Shown here: in pieces, positions 3,828 through 63,154 of the stretch
Layout: each line of letters starts with the position of its first letter
Numbering within the stretch: the stretch's first letter is position 1
NCBI GenBank assembly: GCA_045638385.1
Contig: JAZUBI010000117.1
Span: 29,398 to 93,397, forward strand
Source: Eubacteriales bacterium
GTDB taxonomy: Bacteria > Bacillota > Clostridia > Oscillospirales > CAG-272
Direction of reading: 5' to 3'
DNA: 64,000 nucleotides
The notes under the pieces: generated by a model
What the model saw: only the letters and a program-made list of their open reading frames with translations
What the model was told of the DNA's origin: nothing
Databases searched by the model: none
Made by a program: the position numbers and the translations under genes

Positions 3828-4549
3828 AAATACTTATAACTAACGATGACGGCATTGAAGCTCTCGGTATAAAATTGCTTGTTGAATGGGCGAAAAAGCT
3901 TGGTGATGTCACCGTGGTCGCCCCAAAAGTTGAACAGAGCGGAAAAAGTCACGGAATTGAGCTCACCCATCCCATCGAGGTGCTTGACAGATCTGACTTG
4001 TACGGCGTTGAGGCATTCTCGGTAGATTCTACTCCTGCCGATTGTGTAAGATTCGGAATACTTGGACTTAAGAGGTCTTTTGATCTCGTTCTTTCCGGCA
4101 TCAATAGAGGCGCTAATCTTGGCAAGGATATTGTGTACTCGGGTACTGTAGGCGCAATTTTCGAGGCTGTGGCGCTGAATCACAAGGCTATTGCCTTCTC
4201 TACCTTCCCTGATGCCTTAAACGATGCTTCCAAGCATCTTGGCACTGCGTATGATTTTATAATGGGAAATAAGCTTCTTGAGCTGAATCCAATATATAAC
4301 GTAAATATCCCGCCTATTGCCAACGGCGTTAAGATCACACGCCAGGGTGCTTCTTATTTCGCTGATGAATTTGTCTCGATTGGAAATAATCTTTACAGCC
4401 AAAAAGGATATTATACACCCGACAGCGACCAAAGCAACATCGAATTGGATGCAGTTGCAGTAAATCACGGTCTGATTTCGATCACTCCGATGCAAAATGA
4501 CAGAACTGATATTTCAACCTACAACACAATAAAAAACCTCTTACCGTAA
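3824..4549 (+). CDS. surE: 5'/3'-nucleotidase SurE
   Basis: MKILITNDDGIEALGI...GINRGANLG signature. ATGA start/stop overlap with the upstream gene. Confidence 0.85.
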   Translation: MKILITNDDGIEALGIKLLVEWAKKLGDVTVVAPKVEQSGKSHGIELTHPIEVLDRSDLYGVEAFSVDSTPADCVRFGILGLKRSFDLVLSGINRGANLGKDIVYSGTVGAIFEAVALNHKAIAFSTFPDALNDASKHLGTAYDFIMGNKLLELNPIYNVNIPPIANGVKITRQGASYFADEFVSIGNNLYSQKGYYTPDSDQSNIELDAVAVNHGLISITPMQNDRTDISTYNTIKNLLP

Positions 4550-57755: not shown

Positions 57756-59414
57756 ATGTTAAAGATCAAATTGACATCATCGCTTGAAAAGGTATTCAAG
57801 GATTCAAGCTTTGAGTCCGTAAGCGAAATATCCAAGCTTTCCGCTCTGAAAAACGAACGCATTTCCTTTCAGGTTGCCGCAGAGATAGTCGATACAAATG
57901 TCTTCTCGGAGCAATACTCTATAGAGCTTTCGGGCAAGCTGTCTGAGTACGCAACGATAAGAGAGGTAATAAGCGTTCCCGTAACACTTGCTACCTTCCC
58001 CTGCGGATTTAGCGACGATAATCTTTTAAGAACCACCCCGGGTCTCTACCCTGATCTTCTTATGCCGCTCAGATACAGCAATACTCTCCGCGTAAATAAG
58101 GATTTCGTTTCATCGGTATGGATCGAGCTTGATCTCCGAAGTGTCGAGAATCCTCATATCGGAAAGCTCCCTCTCACAGTTAAATTTTCAAATGAAAAGG
58201 AATCAGCCGAGACGACGCTTGACATCGAGATCATAAATGCCCATCTTCCGGACGAGGATATAACCTTTTCCGAGTGGTTTCATACAGACTGCCTTGCAAA
58301 TTATTACAACATAGAGGCTTTTTCCGAAAAGCATTGGGAAATAATCGAGAACTTCGCGCGCACAGCCAAATCAAACGGCATAAATCTTCTTCTGACCCCA
58401 ACATTTACACCTCCTCTTGACACCGCAGTTGGAGGCGAAAGACTTACAACACAGCTCATCGGTGTAACAAAAAACGGTGACGGATATACTTTTGATTTTT
58501 CTCTTCTTGACAGATGGATCGAGATGTGTGATCGCATTGGCATCAAGTACTTTGAAATCGCGCATTTCTTCACACAGTGGGGCGCAAATCACGCTCCCAA
58601 GGTCATGGCAAACGTCAACGGAGAATATAAAAAGATCTTTGGCTGGGAAACAGATGCAACCGATCCCGAATATACATCCTTCCTCCGCTCATTTATCAAG
58701 GCATTCCTTGAGCATATGAAGGCTCGCGGCGATGATAAGAGATGCTTCTTCCACATTTCCGACGAGCCGAAATTAGAGCAGCTTGAAAGCTACAAGGCTG
58801 CAAAGGACTCTATAAAGGATCTCCTTGTCGGCTACCCCATAATGGACGCCATCTCGAACTATGAATTTTACAAGGATAAAATCGTAGATCTGCCGATTCC
58901 CACAAACAATCATATAGCTCCATTCCTCGAAAACAATGTTCAAAACCTCTGGACGTACTATTGTTGCGGTCAGTGGGACAAGGTCTCCAACCGCTTCATT
59001 GCGATGCCGAGCGCGCGTAACCGCTCGATCGGTATGCAGATGTATAAGCACTCAATAGTCGGTTTTTTGCATTGGGGATATAACTTCTATAACACACAGC
59101 ATTCACACTCACCCATCGATCCCTATCGCGACACATCGGGTGACGGATGGGTACCCGCAGGCGATTGCTTCTCTGTATACCCTGCCCCCGACGGAACTGC
59201 ATATGAAACGATGCGAATCATCGTCTTCTACGAAGCGCTCCAGGATATAAAGGCTATGAAGCTTGCAGAAAAGCTCTGCGGTAAAGAAGCCGTGGTAAAC
59301 GCCATCGAATCGGCATTTGGCCGCACAATATCGTTTGACGAATGCGCTCGTACACCTGATGAAATACTCCGAGTACGTGAGAAAGTAAACAACCTAATAA
59401 AAGAAAACGTGTAA
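57756..59414 (+). CDS. DUF4091-like glycoside-hydrolase-domain protein
   Basis: Cytoplasmic (no signal peptide), 552 aa. The TIM-barrel-like central region (NLLLTPTFTPPLDT..., FEIAHFFTQWGA) matches DUF4091 as recalled. Weakly supported. Confidence 0.5.
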   Translation: MLKIKLTSSLEKVFKDSSFESVSEISKLSALKNERISFQVAAEIVDTNVFSEQYSIELSGKLSEYATIREVISVPVTLATFPCGFSDDNLLRTTPGLYPDLLMPLRYSNTLRVNKDFVSSVWIELDLRSVENPHIGKLPLTVKFSNEKESAETTLDIEIINAHLPDEDITFSEWFHTDCLANYYNIEAFSEKHWEIIENFARTAKSNGINLLLTPTFTPPLDTAVGGERLTTQLIGVTKNGDGYTFDFSLLDRWIEMCDRIGIKYFEIAHFFTQWGANHAPKVMANVNGEYKKIFGWETDATDPEYTSFLRSFIKAFLEHMKARGDDKRCFFHISDEPKLEQLESYKAAKDSIKDLLVGYPIMDAISNYEFYKDKIVDLPIPTNNHIAPFLENNVQNLWTYYCCGQWDKVSNRFIAMPSARNRSIGMQMYKHSIVGFLHWGYNFYNTQHSHSPIDPYRDTSGDGWVPAGDCFSVYPAPDGTAYETMRIIVFYEALQDIKAMKLAEKLCGKEAVVNAIESAFGRTISFDECARTPDEILRVREKVNNLIKENV

Positions 59415-59416
59415 AC

Positions 59417-59465
59417 AAAAAATACCGGCGAAACGGGCTGTACTCTTAAGGACAGTTTTGGAAAG
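59417..59465. repeat. left copy of ~48-nt inverted repeat (AAAAAATACCGGCGA...ACTCTTAAGGACAGTTTTGGAAA)
   Basis: Begins 3 nt after the stop of the 57756..59414 gene. Its partner is at 60274..60322. Confidence 0.75.
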
Positions 59466-59496
59466 TCAATGGAATAGGTTACCTACCGACAGGAAA

Positions 59497-59530
59497 GGAC
59501 GGAAAATTCTAACAATTTCCCGTCCTTTTT
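59497..59530 (+). terminator. intrinsic terminator
   Basis: GGACGGAAAATT/AATTTCCCGTCC stem (one mismatch) followed by T5. Confidence 0.75.
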
Positions 59531-59539
59531 ATACGATCA

Positions 59540-59740
59540 TCAAATATAAACTTTATTTTCAACAATATTTCCTTCTTTGTTTTCTGGATCAAATTCAGGA
59601 AAACAAAGCAAATAGTAGTCACACTCGTCGCAACAACATTCAAAGCCTTGTTCTCCGTTGCCAAGACAAACGGCAGGTTGTCCTGGCGTGAGTTCTATGC
59701 CAGTAATATCAATAACCTTTTTTGGAATATGCTTGCTCAT
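59540..59740 (-). CDS. 66-aa cysteine-rich small protein, unknown function
   Basis: Translates to MSKHIPKKVIDITGIELTPGQPAVCLGNGEQGFECCCDECDYYLLCFPEFDPENKEGNIVENKVYI. Strong RBS AGGAGGATAT-ATG. The listed 105-aa ORF start at 59857 lies inside the leader RNA. Confidence 0.65.
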   Translation of the reverse strand: MSKHIPKKVIDITGIELTPGQPAVCLGNGEQGFECCCDECDYYLLCFPEFDPENKEGNIVENKVYI

Positions 59741-59969
59741 ATATCCTCCTATCAGCATACAAAAAGTGCGCCAACCGAAGTCAGCGCACCGAAAAACGCG
59801 AACTCCAAGTTGTCGCCAAACGAACTTATACGCAGATAGGTATTTTAACACCATCAAACGGGAGTCGCATTTTTACCAAATGTCTATCGTTTAATGATGT
59901 GCGAAAAAGGGTATAGTTATTCCCTAAAGAAAAATATACCTATCAGCGCGATTATTAAGTTCGTTTGGC
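59741..59969 (-). promoter_or_regulatory. structured 5' leader (riboswitch-like, unclassified) with intrinsic terminator
   Basis: 14-bp P1 (59815..59828 with 59956..59969) extended by a 13-bp helix (59831..59843 with 59936..59948). This is followed by the terminator at 59761..59790 and then the RBS. Confidence 0.5.
59761..59790 (-). terminator. leader (attenuator) terminator
   Basis: Minus-strand RNA GGUGCGCUGAC-UUCG-GUUGGCGCAC followed by U5, lying 20 nt upstream of the SD. Confidence 0.7.
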
Positions 59970-59975
59970 ACTATT

Positions 59976-60004
59976 ATTATATCACGTTTTTTTCGTTTTG
60001 TAAA
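59976..60004 (-). promoter_or_regulatory. SigA-type promoter (TTTACA-17-TGaTATAAT) driving the leader and small ORF
   Basis: Minus strand reads TTTACAaaacgaaaaaaacgtgaTATAAT. The predicted start falls at the first base of P1. Confidence 0.75.
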
Positions 60005-60043
60005 TATATCTGATGAATTTTTCTAAATTACCTTCCGGGAGGT

Positions 60044-60181
60044 AAAAAAGCCTCCCTTGTGTAAAGGGAGGTGCCACGGCTTGCCGTGACGGAGGGATTG
60101 TCGAAGATTAGATTTACGCTAAAACAATCCCTCAGCCGCCTTCGGCGTCAGCTCCCTTTGCACAAGGGAGCCTTTTCTTTT
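60044..60181. repeat. pseudo-symmetric imperfect palindrome of five hairpins
   Basis: H1 CCTCCCTT/AAGGGAGG, H2 CACGG/CCGTG, central H3 GAGGGATTGT/ACAATCCCTC, H4 GCCG/CGGC, H5 GCTCCCTT/AAGGGAGC. It is flanked by A6 and a T-rich tract. Confidence 0.8.
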
Positions 60182-60241
60182 GTTCATCTATGACTTGTCA
60201 ATTTTCCTGACAAGCACTGCTTTTGTGTACACAAAAGCAAA

Positions 60242-60277
60242 ATACGGCATACCTCTTTCGAGATATGCCGTATTTTT
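60242..60277. terminator. intrinsic terminator downstream of the suf genes (palindromic)
   Basis: ATACGGCATA/TATGCCGTAT 10-bp stem flanked by A4 and T5. Confidence 0.75.
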
Positions 60278-60322
60278 GAAAACTGTCCTTTAGAGTGACG
60301 CTCTAAATCGCCGGTCTTTTTT
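60274..60322. repeat. right copy of ~48-nt inverted repeat
   Basis: Its reverse complement reads AAAAAAGACCGGCGATTTAGAGCGTCACTCTAAAGGACAGTTTTCAAAA. It overlaps the stop codon of the 60321..61253 gene. Confidence 0.75.
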
Positions 60323-61253
60323 ATTTCAAGAATCCGTTAATGATCTCTTCCTCTGCCTGCTTCTCATCAAGTCCAAGAGTCATAAGCTTTATAAGCTGTT
60401 CTCCCGCAATCTTTCCGATAGCCGCCTCGTGGATAAGTGAAGCCTCTGTGTTGTTTGCAACAATCTTAGGCACTGCAACAACAGACGCGTTATCCATAAT
60501 AATTGCATCACACTCGGTATGTCCCGAGCAACGCGCATTGCCTGCAACGTCGGATATGAAGAGCTGACGCGAGTTGTCCTTTGCAACAGAACGGGAAACA
60601 ACGTGCGTACCGCAATCGTCACCCTGAAGATCAACGTTGAACTCGGTCTCCGCAAACTGCTCGCCGTGAGTCATGATCTTCTCGTGAACTATCAAGGTCG
60701 ATTTAGCCTTAAGAACGGCATCGGTTCTGCGCTTGGTTGAGTCAACGCCCTTGATCTGAGTCGTTTCCATCTCCATATACGCTCCCTCGTCAAGCTCAAC
60801 AACGGTATGGGGATTCATAATGTTCTTTCCGTTTCCGTCACCGTCTCCGAAATGCTTTTCAACGTATTTAACCTTTGCGTTCTTTCCAACGTAAAAGCTG
60901 TGGATTCCGCTATGCTCACTATCCTGAACACCGCAATTATGGATTCCGCATCCGGCAATGATAAGAACGTCTGCCCCGTCACCTATATGAAAATCATTAT
61001 ATACAAGCTCTCTAAGACCGCTCTCTGCCAGGATAACGGGGATATGCACGCTCTCGCGCTTGGTTCCCGCCTTGATATAAATATCAATTCCGGGCTTGTC
61101 CGTCTTTTTTTCGATAACGATGTTTTCGGAGGAGTTCTTTCCAAACATCTCTCCATCGACTCTGAGCGAATATGCACCCTGAGGAACGCCCTCAAGGTCA
61201 GCAACCTCGCGGAGCAGATTAAGCTTAAGACTGTCAAGCTTCTTCTCTGCCAT
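60321..61253 (-). CDS. SufB/SufD family Fe-S cluster assembly protein
   Basis: C-terminal ...SRQLFISD..A.CSGHTECDAIIMDNASVVAVPKIVANNTEASLIHEAAIGKIAGEQLIKLMTLGL is typical of the SufBD beta-helix. Its ATG overlaps the sufC stop (TAATG). Confidence 0.7.
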   Translation of the reverse strand: MAEKKLDSLKLNLLREVADLEGVPQGAYSLRVDGEMFGKNSSENIVIEKKTDKPGIDIYIKAGTKRESVHIPVILAESGLRELVYNDFHIGDGADVLIIAGCGIHNCGVQDSEHSGIHSFYVGKNAKVKYVEKHFGDGDGNGKNIMNPHTVVELDEGAYMEMETTQIKGVDSTKRRTDAVLKAKSTLIVHEKIMTHGEQFAETEFNVDLQGDDCGTHVVSRSVAKDNSRQLFISDVAGNARCSGHTECDAIIMDNASVVAVPKIVANNTEASLIHEAAIGKIAGEQLIKLMTLGLDEKQAEEEIINGFLK

Positions 61254-61984
61254 TATTCCTCACCTCCGCTCGCATATTTGCACGCCGCCTGAGCTGACAA
61301 AAGCTCGGGCAGAATCTCGTCCTTAGTTCCGTATGCGGCGATCTTGCCGTCCGCAATAACGATGATCTTATCAGCTATATCAAGTATCCTCTCCTGGTGA
61401 GAAATGATAAGAATATTTCCGTGAGTCTTCTCGTGCATCTTTTCAAATACCTTGATAAGATTGTTAAAGCTCCAAAGGTCTATTCCCGCCTCAGGCTCAT
61501 CGAATACGGAGAACTTAGTTCCGCGCGCGTTGATCATAGCGATCTCGATCCTCTTAAGCTCGCCTCCCGAAAGAGACTCGTTGATCTCGCGGTTAACGTA
61601 TTCCTTAGCGCAAAGACCGACCTCGGAAAGATACTTGCAAGCCTCTGCAACAGAGATCTTCTCGCCTGCCGCCAAAGAGATCATATCCTTTACGGTAATA
61701 CCCTTAAAGCGCACGGGCTGCTGGAATGCAAAGCTGATACCTGCCTTTGCCCTCTCCGTAATATTCATATCCGATATATCAACTCCGTCAAGAAGTATCT
61801 GACCGGAATCTGCTTTATATATTCCCGCGATAAGCTTTGCAAGCGTAGACTTACCCGAACCGTTAGGTCCCGTTACCGCGACAAATCTTTCATTTATTGT
61901 TACGCTCACGTCGTCAAGTATCTTTATTTGCTTACCTGTTTTCTCATCCGTGACCGTATAAGTAAGATTTTTTATCTCTAACAT
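61253..61984 (-). CDS. sufC: SufC-like Fe-S cluster assembly ATPase
   Basis: GPNGSGKSTLAKLIAG, LSGGELKRIEIAM, FDEPEAGIDL and ISHQERIL motifs. Length of 243 aa fits. Confidence 0.7.
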   Translation of the reverse strand: MLEIKNLTYTVTDEKTGKQIKILDDVSVTINERFVAVTGPNGSGKSTLAKLIAGIYKADSGQILLDGVDISDMNITERAKAGISFAFQQPVRFKGITVKDMISLAAGEKISVAEACKYLSEVGLCAKEYVNREINESLSGGELKRIEIAMINARGTKFSVFDEPEAGIDLWSFNNLIKVFEKMHEKTHGNILIISHQERILDIADKIIVIADGKIAAYGTKDEILPELLSAQAACKYASGGEE

Positions 61985-62041
61985 TTAAAGTAAAAGTTCC
62001 CCTTTCATTAAAAAGTCCGCAGAGCCACCTCTGCCGTGTAT

Positions 62042-62070
62042 TATTTTACCACAAAATCCATTTTAAATCA
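62042..62070 (-). promoter_or_regulatory. SigA-type promoter (TTGATT-17-TAAAAT, TG-extended) for sufC
   Basis: Minus strand reads TTGATTtaaaatggattttgtggTAAAAT. Confidence 0.6.
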
Positions 62071-62130
62071 ATAGAAAAATCAAAAATATTTTAATATTTA
62101 CCATTTAGGTATACATTATTCAAAATTTAG

Positions 62131-62160
62131 TAAAAAAGGACGGGAATTTCCTTCCCGTCC
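62131..62160 (-). terminator. intrinsic terminator after trxB
   Basis: GGACGGGAA/TTCCCGTCC stem followed by U6 on the minus strand. Confidence 0.8.
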
Positions 62161-62176
62161 AATTCTTTTACAATTT

Positions 62177-63085
62177 TTATTTATCAAGATATCTGCAAGC
62201 CGCAAGCGCCGCAGTCGCACCGTCAGCGCATGCCGTCGAGATCTGGCGAACGCCCTTAGTTCTGCAATCTCCAGCAACGAACACACCCTCTGTATCTGTA
62301 AGACAAGCCTCATCCGAAACAATGTATCCTCTGTCATTTAAGGACACAAGATTTCTATACTGCTCGTTTTCAGGCACCTGACCGATAGCAACGAACATAC
62401 CGTCAAGGTCAAGTCTCACCTTCTCGCCGTTCTTCACGTCTTTGATAACGATTCCGTTAAAGGTATCATATCCGAGGATCTCATCAACGGTGTAGCCGCA
62501 AATGATCTCAACGTTCTTTCTTTCACGGAGTATCTTTGCAAGCTTTTCCTCACCGGTAAGAAAATCAAGGTTCTGAACGATATATACCTTCTCGCATCCG
62601 TCCGAAAGCATTATCGCCTCAACGAGAGCGGAATTTCCTCCGCCTACAACCGCAACGGTCTTGTTGGCATAAAAGGCACCGTCACATACCGCGCAGAAGG
62701 ATATACCGTCACCGATAAACTGCTCCTCCTTGGGAAGGCCAAGCAAACGGTGCTTTGATCCTGTGGCAATAACGACCGAGCGCGCAAGGAAATCACATTC
62801 CGAGCATGAAACACTGAAAACACCGTTTTCCTCCTTGCGAACTCCCTTCACCTCTTGCATATCTATCTCAGCGCCAAGATTCAATGCCTGCTCAACAAGC
62901 TTTTCAGCAAGCTCATTTCCGCTTATCTGGCAAAATCCCGGATAATTTTCAATTTTGGGAGAAAAGGTCATCTGTCCGCCAAACGTTCCTCTCTCAAGCA
63001 CGAGAACGCTCTTATCAGCTCTTCTCGCGTATATAGCGGCGGTAAGACCGGCAGGTCCCGCGCCGACAACTATAATGTCATACAT
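62177..63085 (-). CDS. trxB: thioredoxin-disulfide reductase
   Basis: YDIIVVGAGPAGLTAAIYA (FAD), CAVCDG redox centre, VVGGGNSA (NADPH). The ATG at 63085 has RBS AAGAGG. The TTG at 63115 lies inside the upstream hairpin. Confidence 0.85.
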   Translation of the reverse strand: MYDIIVVGAGPAGLTAAIYARRADKSVLVLERGTFGGQMTFSPKIENYPGFCQISGNELAEKLVEQALNLGAEIDMQEVKGVRKEENGVFSVSCSECDFLARSVVIATGSKHRLLGLPKEEQFIGDGISFCAVCDGAFYANKTVAVVGGGNSALVEAIMLSDGCEKVYIVQNLDFLTGEEKLAKILRERKNVEIICGYTVDEILGYDTFNGIVIKDVKNGEKVRLDLDGMFVAIGQVPENEQYRNLVSLNDRGYIVSDEACLTDTEGVFVAGDCRTKGVRQISTACADGATAALAACRYLDK

Positions 63086-63102
63086 ATTCTGCCTCTTTCG
63101 GT

Positions 63103-63154
63103 AAAAAATTGGCAATCCGCCCGTTTCTTTTCCCGATTCCTCGGGCGGATTGCC
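63103..63154 (-). terminator. 12-bp hairpin plus U-tract between nrdD and trxB (terminator/attenuator)
   Basis: GGCAATCCGCCC (63111..63122) pairs perfectly with GGGCGGATTGCC (63143..63154). On the minus strand it is followed by AAUUUUUU and then directly by the trxB RBS. Confidence 0.55.

Follow-up and report, generated by a model that had tools for sequence, protein, structure and literature searches.

We find that the leader of a 66-aa Cys-rich ORF, on the minus strand of the window (the whole 64-kb stretch of DNA analysed here), is, on comparative sequence evidence, a conserved, structured, cis-located RNA domain backed by covariation. The leader family to which it belongs is widespread in uncultured gut Clostridia and absent from Rfam, and we think it probable that these leaders constitute a new family of pseudoknotted, riboswitch-like transcription-attenuation RNAs. 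At the centre of this family there appears to be a conserved switch, in which the hexamer GGAGUU in the tail of the RNA pairs either with the loop of hairpin P3, giving a pseudoknot, or with the terminator apex, giving an antiterminator. The hosts belong to a large branch of uncultured gut Clostridia, from both ruminants and humans.

Scanning the entire window against Rfam 15 returned no matches at gathering score. Within 59300-60400, relaxing the cutoff to E <= 10 gave only chance-level matches, of which the best, L20 leader (24.8 bits against a threshold of 58.7), covers the ORF's terminator only. Scans of six homologous loci found tRNA only, and a scan of L089 found nothing. The original prediction that the element lies outside known riboswitch families therefore holds for the window and its homologues. 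Literature searches turned up no description of the leader motif. In blastn searches the RNA sequence had no match among plasmids and one match among phages, and an exact scan of viral_contigs for a 22-mer spanning tail and terminator gave 0 matches.

The RNA is predicted to be transcribed from a sigma-A type promoter (59976..60004, minus strand; -35 TTTACA at 60004-59999, a 17-nt spacer, and an extended -10 TGaTATAAT at 59984-59976) that is the sole promoter-like site within 59300-60400 and matches the consensus at 11/12 positions plus the extended TG. As originally proposed, the inferred transcription start, G59969, is the first base of helix P1, 7 nt past the -10 hexamer, and an equivalent promoter at the same distance from P1 (6-7 nt) was found in 34/34 family members inspected. 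The leader RNA is ~205-210 nt long and contains helices P1 and P2, a small hairpin P2a, and a long hairpin P3. P1 opens at the inferred start and joins its 5' arm GCCAAACGAACUUA (DNA GCCAAACGAACTTA; 59956..59969, minus strand) to the 3' arm UAAGUUCGUUUGGC (DNA TAAGTTCGTTTGGC; 59815..59828, minus strand) through 14 bp with 100% complementarity. The inner helix P2 pairs GCGC-U-GAUAGGUAU (59936..59949, minus strand) with AUACCUAUC-U-GCGU (59830..59843, minus strand) with one mismatch, and the two helices form a continuous stack of ~27 bp; we dropped the idea of a retron non-coding RNA because P2 stacks directly on P1. Enclosed by this stack are P2a (AGGG-AAUAACUAUA-CCCU; 59908..59925, minus strand), which is followed by the conserved U-tract CCCUUUUU and is missing from a short variant of the family, and P3 (59848..59900, minus strand), whose 13-bp stem (59900-59888 with 59860-59848) carries a conserved 27-nt loop, L3 (..AUUUGGUAAAAAUGCGACUCC; 59887-59861, minus strand). 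Downstream lies an intrinsic terminator, GGUGCGCUGAC-UUCG-GUUGGCGCAC plus U5 (59761..59790, minus strand), kept in all members, and then the SD and the 66-aa ORF (59540..59750, minus strand; SD AGGAGG at 59750-59745, ATG at 59740, stop at 59542-59540). The 14-bp helix, the one-mismatch inner helix, the internal hairpins AGGG/CCCU and CAUCAUUAAACG/CGUUUGAUGGUG, and the UUCG-capped terminator before the Cys-rich ORF had all been read from the window sequence beforehand, and all are present. The window leader has an MFE of -84.9 kcal/mol, compared with -56.5 +/- 4.8 for shuffled sequences (z = -5.9; 0/200 shuffles reached it).

Homologous leaders support these helices, with 40-41 of 44 pairs compensatory. 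A5 aligns 67 leaders that precede the Cys-rich ORF and has 92.1% of its cells paired, compared with 35-44% when slid, with 41/44 pairs compensatory; for A7, which aligns 30 further leaders that precede other genes, the values are 92.5% and 40/44. The two sets are not fully independent: both alignments were fitted to one covariance model, derived from 16 sequences closely related to the window, and the A7 loci were chosen by an exact 22-mer taken from the first set. Compensatory changes occur at 11/14 P1 pairs in A5, at 10/14 in A7, and at 10/14 in A2, a structure-blind, MAFFT-only alignment. P2 (helices 2 and 3 of the alignment) has them at 13/13 pairs in A5, and P3 has them at 13/13 pairs in A5 and at 13/13 in A7. 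With plain MAFFT and RNAalifold, indels concealed P2 and P3, and their recovery needed a covariance model from the window's own subfamily.

Paired positions also carry a strand signature: G.U outnumbers A.C by 225 to 49 and by 89 to 16 (4.6-5.6 to 1), which indicates that the selected molecule is the sense-strand RNA. This excess speaks against a reading in which the inverted repeats act as DNA, forming a cruciform, a recombination site or a protein operator. The length and near-perfection of the repeats, the location of the region inside a transposable element, and low-score antisense matches to the covariance model would all be in keeping with such a role. Against it stand, besides the strand signature, the covariation of both the pseudoknot and the alternative helix, a promoter that places +1 precisely at P1 in each member inspected, and the finding of the RNA outside the cassette, and we regard a DNA-level function as extremely improbable.

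The long-range pseudoknot joins the P3 loop (59874-59861) to the tail (59806-59792) through 14-16 bp. Its 5' strand, AAAAAUGCGACUCC (59861..59874, minus strand), lies inside L3, and its 3' strand is the tail itself, GGAGUUCGCGUUUUU (59792..59806, minus strand), which adjoins the terminator. In the window this duplex has a predicted energy of -17.2 kcal/mol (z = -4.8); the family mean is likewise -17.2 kcal/mol (z = -5.4), and compensatory variants are present. The MAFFT alignment has 93% of pseudoknot cells paired with 8/15 pairs compensatory, and for P1 and the pseudoknot together A2 gives 93.3% paired and 18/29 pairs compensatory.

The first six nucleotides of the tail, GGAGUU, are common to the pseudoknot and, on computational evidence, to a helix formed with the apex and 3' arm of the terminator. 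The 5' strand of this antiterminator, CGACAACUUGGAGUU (59801..59815, minus strand), comprises the last P1 base, a linker and the start of the tail; it begins with the last base of the P1 3' arm in the window and takes the last two bases in other family members. Its 3' strand (~59783-59768) consists of the terminator apex and 3' arm, and the helix (~59815-59801 with ~59783-59768; 11-15 bp) would compete with both the pseudoknot and the terminator, stopping 2-3 nt before the U-tract. Across 90 unique sequences, the per-sequence antiterminator duplexes are 11-15 bp long with a mean of -14.9 kcal/mol, and the terminator hairpin has a mean energy of -16.4 kcal/mol. Eleven antiterminator pairs are 95.7% paired, compared with 16-56% when slid, and five of them are compensatory in the same alignment on which RNAalifold first proposed the helix, with several columns nearly invariant. 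The pseudoknot, the antiterminator helix and the location inside a mobile cassette had been missed by the original prediction.

That prediction had instead described a mutually exclusive layout built on a duplicated 9-mer, and the result divides it: an alternative helix is supported by the comparison of homologues, but the element involved is GGAGUU, not GCUGAUAGG. In the proposed translational switch, the P2 5' arm and an SD-overlapping copy of GCUGAUAGG would compete for pairing with the P2 3' arm CCUAUCUGC. The 9-mer GCUGAUAGG does occur twice in the window, and a duplex of the P2 3' arm and the SD region could form at -16.4 kcal/mol (z = -4.4), with similar values in ~15 close relatives. 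At least 8 nt are shared in only 4/61 homologues, however, and the complementarity is confined to the window's close subfamily, with z ~0 elsewhere; those close relatives amount to essentially one evolutionary event. P2 is hypervariable in sequence across the family yet always self-paired, and the ~27-bp P1-P2 helix would be made before the SD is transcribed. Comparison of homologues thus contradicts an SD-mimic switch as a family-wide mechanism, and we consider it highly improbable.

These features suggest the following model of transcription attenuation. Transcription would begin at G59969 from the near-consensus sigma-A promoter, and the nascent RNA would fold into P1-P2 and a three-way junction with P2a and P3, displaying the conserved 27-nt P3 loop. 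Emerging directly after P1, the tail GGAGUUCGCGUUUUU would then have two pairing choices. In the OFF state it would pair with the P3 loop in a pseudoknot, probably stacked on P3, that hides GGAGUU; the neighbouring terminator hairpin would then form, ending transcription at the U-tract (~59765-59761) with release of an RNA of ~205-210 nt. In the ON state the pseudoknot would be prevented, the linker and GGAGUU would pair with the terminator apex and 3' arm, and RNA polymerase would pass through into the SD and ORF. The conserved loop, the pseudoknot and the U/A/U tracts would be the sites at which an effector acts, and that effector may be a protein or RNA as well as a small molecule or ion. 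Comparative analysis of the predicted structure shows its helices, pseudoknot, alternative helix, promoter position and tight ORF spacing; we infer which way the switch works and that its outcome depends on an effector.

Several properties of the RNA bear on how readily it could switch. At 14-16 bp and ~-17 kcal/mol, the pseudoknot greatly exceeds, in both length and stability, the helices that typically switch in response to a ligand. The state combining pseudoknot and terminator is far favoured thermodynamically, so the RNA might terminate constitutively. Since the alternative helix takes the terminator 3' arm and stops short of the U-tract, some terminator activity may also be kept in the ON state. 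Three other forms of attenuation were rejected. Against a T-box, the loop varies among UGGU, UGAU, UGUU, UGAC, UGGC and AGGC in place of a conserved UGGN motif, and there is no Rfam T-box match; for leader-peptide attenuation, the sole AUG-initiated mini-ORF, in L3, is not conserved, with most members reading AAAAACGC; and for antisense-RNA attenuation, we found no antisense promoter.

The RNA shows no specificity for the Cys-rich ORF. An RNA-first scan found it upstream of many unrelated genes and also outside the cassette described below, refuting the idea that it is confined to either. Of 89 loci found via this RNA search rather than via an ORF search, 54 have an ORF with an SD beginning 16-60 nt past the terminator and no promoter between. 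The downstream genes encode zinc-ribbon/TM proteins, lipoproteins, DUF4234, SHOCT, LOR and DUF4352 proteins, a DrrA-like ABC ATPase, a MazE-like protein, and a type II restriction-modification pair (methyltransferase and restriction enzyme). They show an envelope/accessory bias with no obvious metabolic theme in common, and such heterogeneity is atypical for classical riboswitches. The zinc-ribbon or Cys-rich products of several of these other genes give no more than a weak hint of the metal or redox ligand that was originally thought conceivable. In 27 human-gut loci, a separate consensus promoter follows the RNA and precedes Wzy_C and SLH genes.

The leader might alternatively be a free-standing, abundant small RNA of ~205 nt that works in trans or in an RNA-protein complex, with the ORFs expressed through incidental read-through or from other promoters. 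The second promoter in the 27 human-gut loci fits this reading, as do the near-consensus promoter and strong terminator that the RNA has of its own, its presence in several copies per genome, including tandem copies, and the thermodynamic dominance of the pseudoknot-plus-terminator state. A covarying helix that competes with the terminator would serve no obvious purpose in a free-standing RNA, however, and most loci have the next SD 16-60 nt past the U-tract with no promoter between. On balance we think this alternative unlikely; small-RNA and attenuator roles are not mutually exclusive.

The 66-aa protein downstream of the RNA in the window is strongly acidic, has six Cys and is not membrane-like, with a conserved core of TGxxLxPGxPxxCxGNGE..ECCCDECDYYLxCFPE. 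We identified 1386 relatives, and clustering at 50% identity gave 519 clusters, all small. Profile searches of Pfam, NCBIfam, PADLOC, PHROGs and PDB gave no match, and neither did tblastn searches of reference phages and plasmids. AlphaFold2 predictions reached a pLDDT of 40.6 with a 28-sequence alignment and 65.1 with 94 sequences, and a Foldseek search of the model against the PDB returned nothing below E = 4.7. A Rep3 plasmid-like contig encodes one distant relative of the protein, with no such RNA upstream. A terminator-like hairpin (59494..59528, minus strand) follows the ORF, with an A-run before it and a T-run after it, making bidirectional use possible.

In the window, the RNA and the 66-aa ORF are the cargo of a recently inserted element with terminal inverted repeats, in the loop of a host terminator. 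This non-autonomous cassette (871 bp; 59434..60304, minus strand) holds the promoter, the RNA and the ORF, and it contains no transposase gene: the 66-aa gene is the sole gene-sized ORF within 59434-60304, and the other listed ORFs are short, overlapping frames, including a 105-aa TTG extension of the 66-aa gene. Locus L084 provides an empty site, with flanks 98.2% and 99.4% identical to those of the window and the two alignments overlapping by 2 nt (TT). The empty-site comparison defines a TT target duplication, with its left copy at 60305..60306 and its right copy at 59432-59433; the empty site reads CGATTTTCGCC (four T), and the occupied site has three T on each side. The same cassette is found at 90-99% identity in unrelated flanks in L001, L002, L004 and L009. 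Among the 80 loci kept, with up to four per genome, none (0/80) has the window's flanking genes.

Each end of the cassette carries a 26-bp terminal inverted repeat, AGAGCGTCACTCTAAAGGACAGTTTT on the left (60279..60304, minus strand) and, as read on the plus strand, CGGGCTGTACTCTTAAGGACAGTTTT on the right (59434..59459). The two match at 19/26 positions (counted by hand with ungapped ends), and their inner 23 nt are 87% complementary; the window has exactly two occurrences of a core, CTCTwAAGGACAGTTTT, one per cassette end, and this core is conserved in other loci. Together with the preceding TT, the left repeat forms a hairpin, TTAGAG-cgtca-CTCTAA, that covaries among loci. The imperfect 26-bp inverted repeats and 2-bp duplication give the element a tentative resemblance to IS30. 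The insertion splits a bidirectional host terminator into a right half (..TCGCCGGTATTTTTTGTTT; 59413..59431) and a left half (AAATAAAAAAGACCGGCGA; 60308-60326), and this terminator is intact in L084 as AAAAATACCGGCGATTTTCGCCGGTATTTTTT. Locus-specific split terminators likewise flank the cassette in L001, L006, L040, L048, L059, L074 and L076. Just inside the left end lies a terminator-like hairpin (60239..60276, minus strand) with a 17-bp stem followed by UUUU, conserved in many loci as block U1, which would stop host transcripts reading into the cassette.

The cassette resembles mobile insertion cassettes (MICs) and MITE-like elements, such as the IS231-derived MIC231 of Bacillus cereus, in having terminal inverted repeats around passenger DNA, no transposase gene and a short target duplication, and in occurring in many copies in unrelated contexts with a demonstrable empty site. 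Unlike MICs, its passenger is self-contained, with a promoter, regulatory RNA, terminator, small ORF and second terminator, and the cassette inserts into intrinsic-terminator loops and bears terminators at both ends.

The mobile context also raises the question of a type III-like toxin-antitoxin or addiction module, in which the RNA would be the antitoxin, the 66-aa protein the toxin, and the terminator would set the RNA:toxin ratio. Type III loci (ToxIN, CptIN, TenpIN) have the same succession of promoter, pseudoknotted RNA, intrinsic terminator and protein gene, as well as a link to mobile elements, and the protein's distant relative on the Rep3 plasmid-like contig would be compatible with such a module. 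Unlike type III loci, the leader has no tandem RNA repeats (Tandem Repeats Finder gave 0 rows for 59400-60340), and the ORF encodes an acidic, Cys-rich peptide that is not membrane-like, rather than a ToxN-like endoribonuclease. The protein matches no toxin or defence model in Pfam or PADLOC, including ToxN, CptN and TenpN. Further, the same RNA precedes dozens of unrelated genes, and the plasmid homologue lacks it. We therefore judge an addiction module to be very unlikely.

Among known regulatory RNAs, our favoured reading of the leader as an attenuator comes close to the terminator/antiterminator riboswitches that have a pseudoknot-closed aptamer, such as fluoride, preQ1, SAM-II/V and c-di-GMP-II. 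Like these, it lies in a 5' UTR and opens at the transcription start, combines conserved loops and junctions with covarying stems, uses a 3' tail common to the pseudoknot and an expression-platform helix, and places an intrinsic terminator immediately upstream of the SD and ORF. We speculate that its U-tract, A-tract and second U-tract could form U.A-U triples as in SAM-II or preQ1-II. Unlike them, it has no Rfam match, its pseudoknot is 14-16 bp compared with 4-7 bp in known riboswitch classes, its closing P1-P2 stack is ~27 bp, its alternative helix takes the terminator 3' arm rather than the 5' arm, and the genes that follow it are a mixture of accessory, envelope and mobile-element genes with no metabolic theme. 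A second group of comparable systems comprises attenuators that depend on a protein or an RNA: T-box, PyrR, TRAP and RAT/ANTAR leaders, and antisense attenuation in the plasmids pT181 and pIP501. As in these, a default choice between terminator and antiterminator would be decided by a macromolecule at a conserved loop, and as in the pT181 and pIP501 systems, the leader is tied to mobile elements. The leader differs from this group in having no leader peptide and no antisense promoter that we could find, and in being a three-way junction with a long pseudoknot.

More tentatively, and with less confidence than in attenuation as such, we suggest that the leader may be a new riboswitch class or other effector-sensing attenuator. 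It would govern accessory, envelope and defence genes dispersed as a regulon in uncultured gut Clostridia, and would have been captured, as a portable module for regulated expression, by a terminator-loop-targeting cassette that re-supplies terminators at both ends. In that case it would answer a global signal, for example an ion or metal, a second messenger, or a cue from infection or envelope stress. If the attenuation model holds, the family is a widespread and strongly supported orphan regulatory RNA candidate awaiting its ligand or partner, and the six-nucleotide switching segment common to the pseudoknot and the antiterminator provides a testable handle. The cassette represents a compact natural design for the insulated delivery of a self-regulated gene, with its own terminators and a documented empty site. 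The genes downstream of the RNA are an otherwise uncharacterised set that includes zinc-ribbon and membrane proteins, lipoproteins, ABC ATPases, a restriction-modification pair, S-layer genes and a 1386-member Cys-rich family that lacks annotation, and the identity of the effector would give the first functional handle on that set as a whole.

Our data confirm the leader layout originally predicted on the minus strand of the window: a promoter (TTTACA-17-TGaTATAAT, 60004-59976), which is the sole promoter-like site within 59300-60400, a perfect 14-bp helix (59969-59956 with 59828-59815), a second helix that extends it with one mismatch, internal hairpins, a clean terminator (59790-59761), and a Shine-Dalgarno (SD) sequence followed by a 66-aa ORF with six cysteines (ATG at 59740). 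A 241-nt stretch of the leader folds at -84.9 kcal/mol, compared to -56.5 +/- 4.8 kcal/mol for shuffled sequences (z = -5.9). The leader matches no known family in Rfam 15: at the gathering score there were no matches in the whole window, and at E <= 10 there was no meaningful match around the leader.

The ORF belongs to a large, unannotated protein family. We identified 1386 relatives (519 clusters at 50% identity), all of them small, with the conserved core TGxxLxPGxPxxCxGNGE..ECCCDECDYYLxCFPE. The 66-aa protein has no match in Pfam, NCBIfam, PADLOC, PHROGs or the PDB; AlphaFold2 gave no confident fold (pLDDT 40.6 with 28 sequences, 65.1 with 94), and a Foldseek search with the model found nothing. 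An ORF scan of species-representative genomes yielded 494 loci, and the 80 that we kept all come from animal-gut metagenome-assembled genomes of uncultured Clostridia/Eubacteriales/Oscillospiraceae, several of which carry more than one locus. In nearly all loci, about 270 nt 5' of the ATG is conserved, down to about 68% identity. A distant homologue, P0185, is encoded at 1872-2087 of a 2.3-kb contig (Logan SRR24653732), in fourth place in a compact operon behind a Rep3 replication gene, with no leader RNA upstream; its position behind the replication gene indicates that the family is also plasmid-borne.

Folding each homologous leader separately revealed a single architecture. P1 (12-16 bp) begins at the inferred +1 and is followed, after an internal loop, by P2 (9-15 bp), a three-way junction bearing a small hairpin (P2a) and a U-tract, and a long P3 (12-15 bp) whose conserved loop (GAAUUUGGUAAAAAYGCRAnUUCC) spans about 25 nt. 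The sequences of P2 and P3 are hypervariable between homologues, yet both helices are always kept. A covariance model of the window's own subfamily matches upstream of virtually every ORF copy (46-217 bits). The helices covary: in an alignment of ORF-linked leaders fitted to this model, and thus biased toward the structure, 92.1% of cells are paired compared to 35-44% in slid controls, with compensatory changes at 41 of 44 pairs; support for P1 is equal on a plain MAFFT alignment. At paired positions G.U outnumbers A.C (225 vs 49), arguing that the selected molecule is the sense-strand RNA rather than DNA or an antisense transcript, and we disfavor a DNA-level reading of the inverted repeats. 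P2a and the junction are missing from a short variant, which retains P1, one long big-loop hairpin, the tail and the terminator. The most invariant columns are the loop A-tract, the tail U-tract and the junction U-tract; that these form a U.A-U triple helix is conceivable, though speculative.

The 3' half of the P3 loop (AAAAAUGCGACUCC, 59874-59861, minus strand) is complementary to the tail between P1 and the terminator (GGAGUUCGCGUUUUU, 59806-59792, minus strand), predicting a pseudoknot. The duplex has a mean energy of -17.2 kcal/mol (z = -5.4) over 38 unique loop/tail pairs, and in a structure-blind alignment its 15 pairs are 93% paired, eight with compensatory changes; clearly compensatory variants include GUACAAGUUUC with GGGGCUUGUGC and AAAUUCC with GGAAUUU. 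RNAalifold suggested a competing structure, in which the linker and tail pair with the terminator apex. Over 11 counted pairs this alternative helix is 95.7% paired (16-56% when slid), with five compensatory pairs; among the changes, A-U became U-A or G-C in different lineages. When the two data sets are taken together (90 unique sequences), a duplex of 11-15 bp joins the linker and GGAGUU to the terminator apex and 3' arm, at a mean of -14.9 kcal/mol (z = -3.4) that is comparable to the terminator's -16.4 kcal/mol. The U-tract begins 2-3 nt after the end of the alternative stem and, as generally expected for intrinsic terminators, a stem set back in this way should terminate poorly. Because the pseudoknot and the alternative helix both use GGAGUU, they are mutually exclusive. 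Pseudoknot formation would thus allow the terminator hairpin to form (OFF), while blocking the pseudoknot would let the antiterminator form and RNA polymerase read through. The high stability of the pseudoknot speaks against such attenuation. H-type pseudoknots come under topological strain once a continuous stem exceeds one helical turn; here the distal 9-10 bp may be constitutive, with only the proximal GGAGUU:AAYUCC toggling.

The original prediction placed the switch elsewhere, in a P2 3' arm able to pair with either its 5' arm or a duplicate overlapping the SD. This duplication (GCUGAUAGG, at least 8 nt) is common to just 4 of 61 homologues and is not the conserved switch, so we disfavor the SD-mimic model; the proposal of a novel cis-regulatory RNA stands in that the leader is structured, covarying and without an Rfam match. 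Only the window's own subfamily shows strong complementarity between the P2 3' arm (59830-59843) and the SD region (59741-59763), seen in about 15 close relatives (-14 to -21 kcal/mol, z -3 to -5.5) and in no other subfamily; this may reflect additional regulation peculiar to that lineage or a coincidence carried along by hitch-hiking.

The leader RNA is not tied to the Cys-rich ORF. Scanning metagenome contigs for the exact tail-plus-terminator 22-mer gave 89 loci, virtually all with the full leader and each with a TTTACA/TTGACA-17-TGnTATAAT promoter 6-7 nt before P1, and only 16 encode the Cys-rich protein. In the others, the RNA precedes genes of many kinds, with an SD 16-60 nt past the U-tract, encoding DrrA-like ABC ATPases, DUF4234 and SHOCT membrane proteins, zinc-ribbon/TM proteins, MazE/AbrB-like proteins, CpXC/double-zinc-ribbon proteins, LURP-one-related proteins, DUF4352 and Cys-rich lipoproteins and, as read from sequence without a Pfam scan, a likely CHAP/NlpC-P60-type amidase. 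Thirty leaders of these other genes form a further covariation set that is independent of the ORF, with 92.5% of cells paired and 40 of 44 pairs compensatory. A type III-like toxin-antitoxin system is also disfavored. In 27 human-gut loci, a second consensus promoter lies downstream of a short-variant leader and precedes genes for a Wzy_C protein and a 1783-aa SLH protein. Both this second promoter and the heterogeneity of the downstream genes weigh against attenuation. The main rival, a free-standing small RNA, fits part of the data and is compatible with attenuation; we consider it unlikely.

Several individual loci bear on the module's context. On a phage-like contig from human faeces (MT835503.1, 338-2829), a leader (69.8 bits) lies directly 5' of a type II restriction-modification pair, an EcoRI-type methyltransferase and a GmrSD_N/HNH enzyme. 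Tandem head-to-tail leader-ORF units or lone leaders occur in L008 (2773-2950 and 3416-3594), L011 (2119-2292 and 2775-2950), L116, L161 and L109, and near-identical leaders, variable stems included, precede unrelated genes, for example in L108 (zinc-ribbon) and L130; these copies suggest recent duplication or swapping of the module. In L128 the loop motif TTTGGTAAAAATGCA recurs ~190 nt away on the opposite strand (1647-1661, 1854-1868), suggesting a second, divergent head-to-head leader.

In the window, promoter, leader and ORF reside in a mobile cassette. The neighbors SufC/SufBD and GH123 are shared by none of the 80 genome loci, and four loci (L001, L002, L004, L009) match the window at 90-99% identity only across about 59420-60307. 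A 23-nt inverted repeat bounds the unit (59442-59464 and 60274-60296, 87% complementary), reaching 26 bp, imperfect, when extended to the element ends. Immediately outside it are the separated halves of a host terminator, recognizable as another, locus-specific inverted repeat with A- and T-runs. We identified an empty site in L084, a contig with an identical SufBD protein, 98.2% and 99.4% identical flanks and an intact intergenic terminator (AAAAATACCGGCGATTTTCGCCGGTATTTTTT). Its flank alignments overlap by 2 nt, showing that 871 bp (59434-60304) were inserted in the window, with duplication of TT. The cassette has no transposase gene, and terminator-like hairpins lie inside its ends (60276-60239 and 59528-59494); such an element, bounded by TIRs, non-autonomous and carrying a passenger gene, is by definition a mobile insertion cassette. 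Other cassettes carry a zinc-ribbon protein (L141) or a membrane protein (L145), and most 22-mer loci lack cassette ends. In L165, by contrast with the window's split terminator, the leader-gene module sits between two complete, mutually similar terminator hairpins (2403-2437 and 4050-4085; CGCCGCCGCACCCA...). Host genes by the insertion encode a SufC-like ABC ATPase, a SufBD-core protein and a thioredoxin-reductase-like flavoprotein (60321-63115, minus strand), and a GH123 glycosidase gene converges from the other side. This redox/Fe-S neighborhood is coincidental to the Cys-rich ORF, since the cassette, as the empty site shows, came later.

The cassettes vary in structure. At the left end (60296-60312) is a 6-7 bp hairpin, TTAGAG-cgtca-CTCTAA, whose sides covary in the loci compared (L021, L027, L059, L066, L076, L034), as TTGGGG with CCCCAA and TTAGGG with CCCTAA; no such hairpin is seen at the right end, and in L006 both ends carry sequence of the right-end type. 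L002, in another metagenome-assembled genome, has an extra ~595 bp (1923-2518) in an otherwise 99% identical cassette, inserted at window ~60212-60222 and containing an inverted second small-ORF copy (75% identity) and a short-variant leader. Upstream of the promoter and still within the cassette, a hairpin-rich block (60040-60180, both strands) has 28-nt inverted arms (60046-60073, 60149-60176) around three hairpins and folds at -72.3 kcal/mol (z = -8.7). Some cassettes have this block and others lack it, and it occurs elsewhere in both orientations; its only Rfam match is at chance level (Clostridiales-2, E = 1.2). The block is probably either a second palindromic repeat element, nested in the cassette, or a structured RNA.

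Our full-text literature searches turned up no description of this leader RNA, and we file it as a kind of terminator/antiterminator leader outside all Rfam families. A tentative idea, which we rather doubt, is that the RNA represents a genuinely new class of riboswitch answering to a global signal. On comparative sequence evidence, the best-supported reading, and a fairly probable one, is a new riboswitch-like family of transcription-attenuating leader RNA; in the window, a mobile cassette would have recruited it as its expression module.
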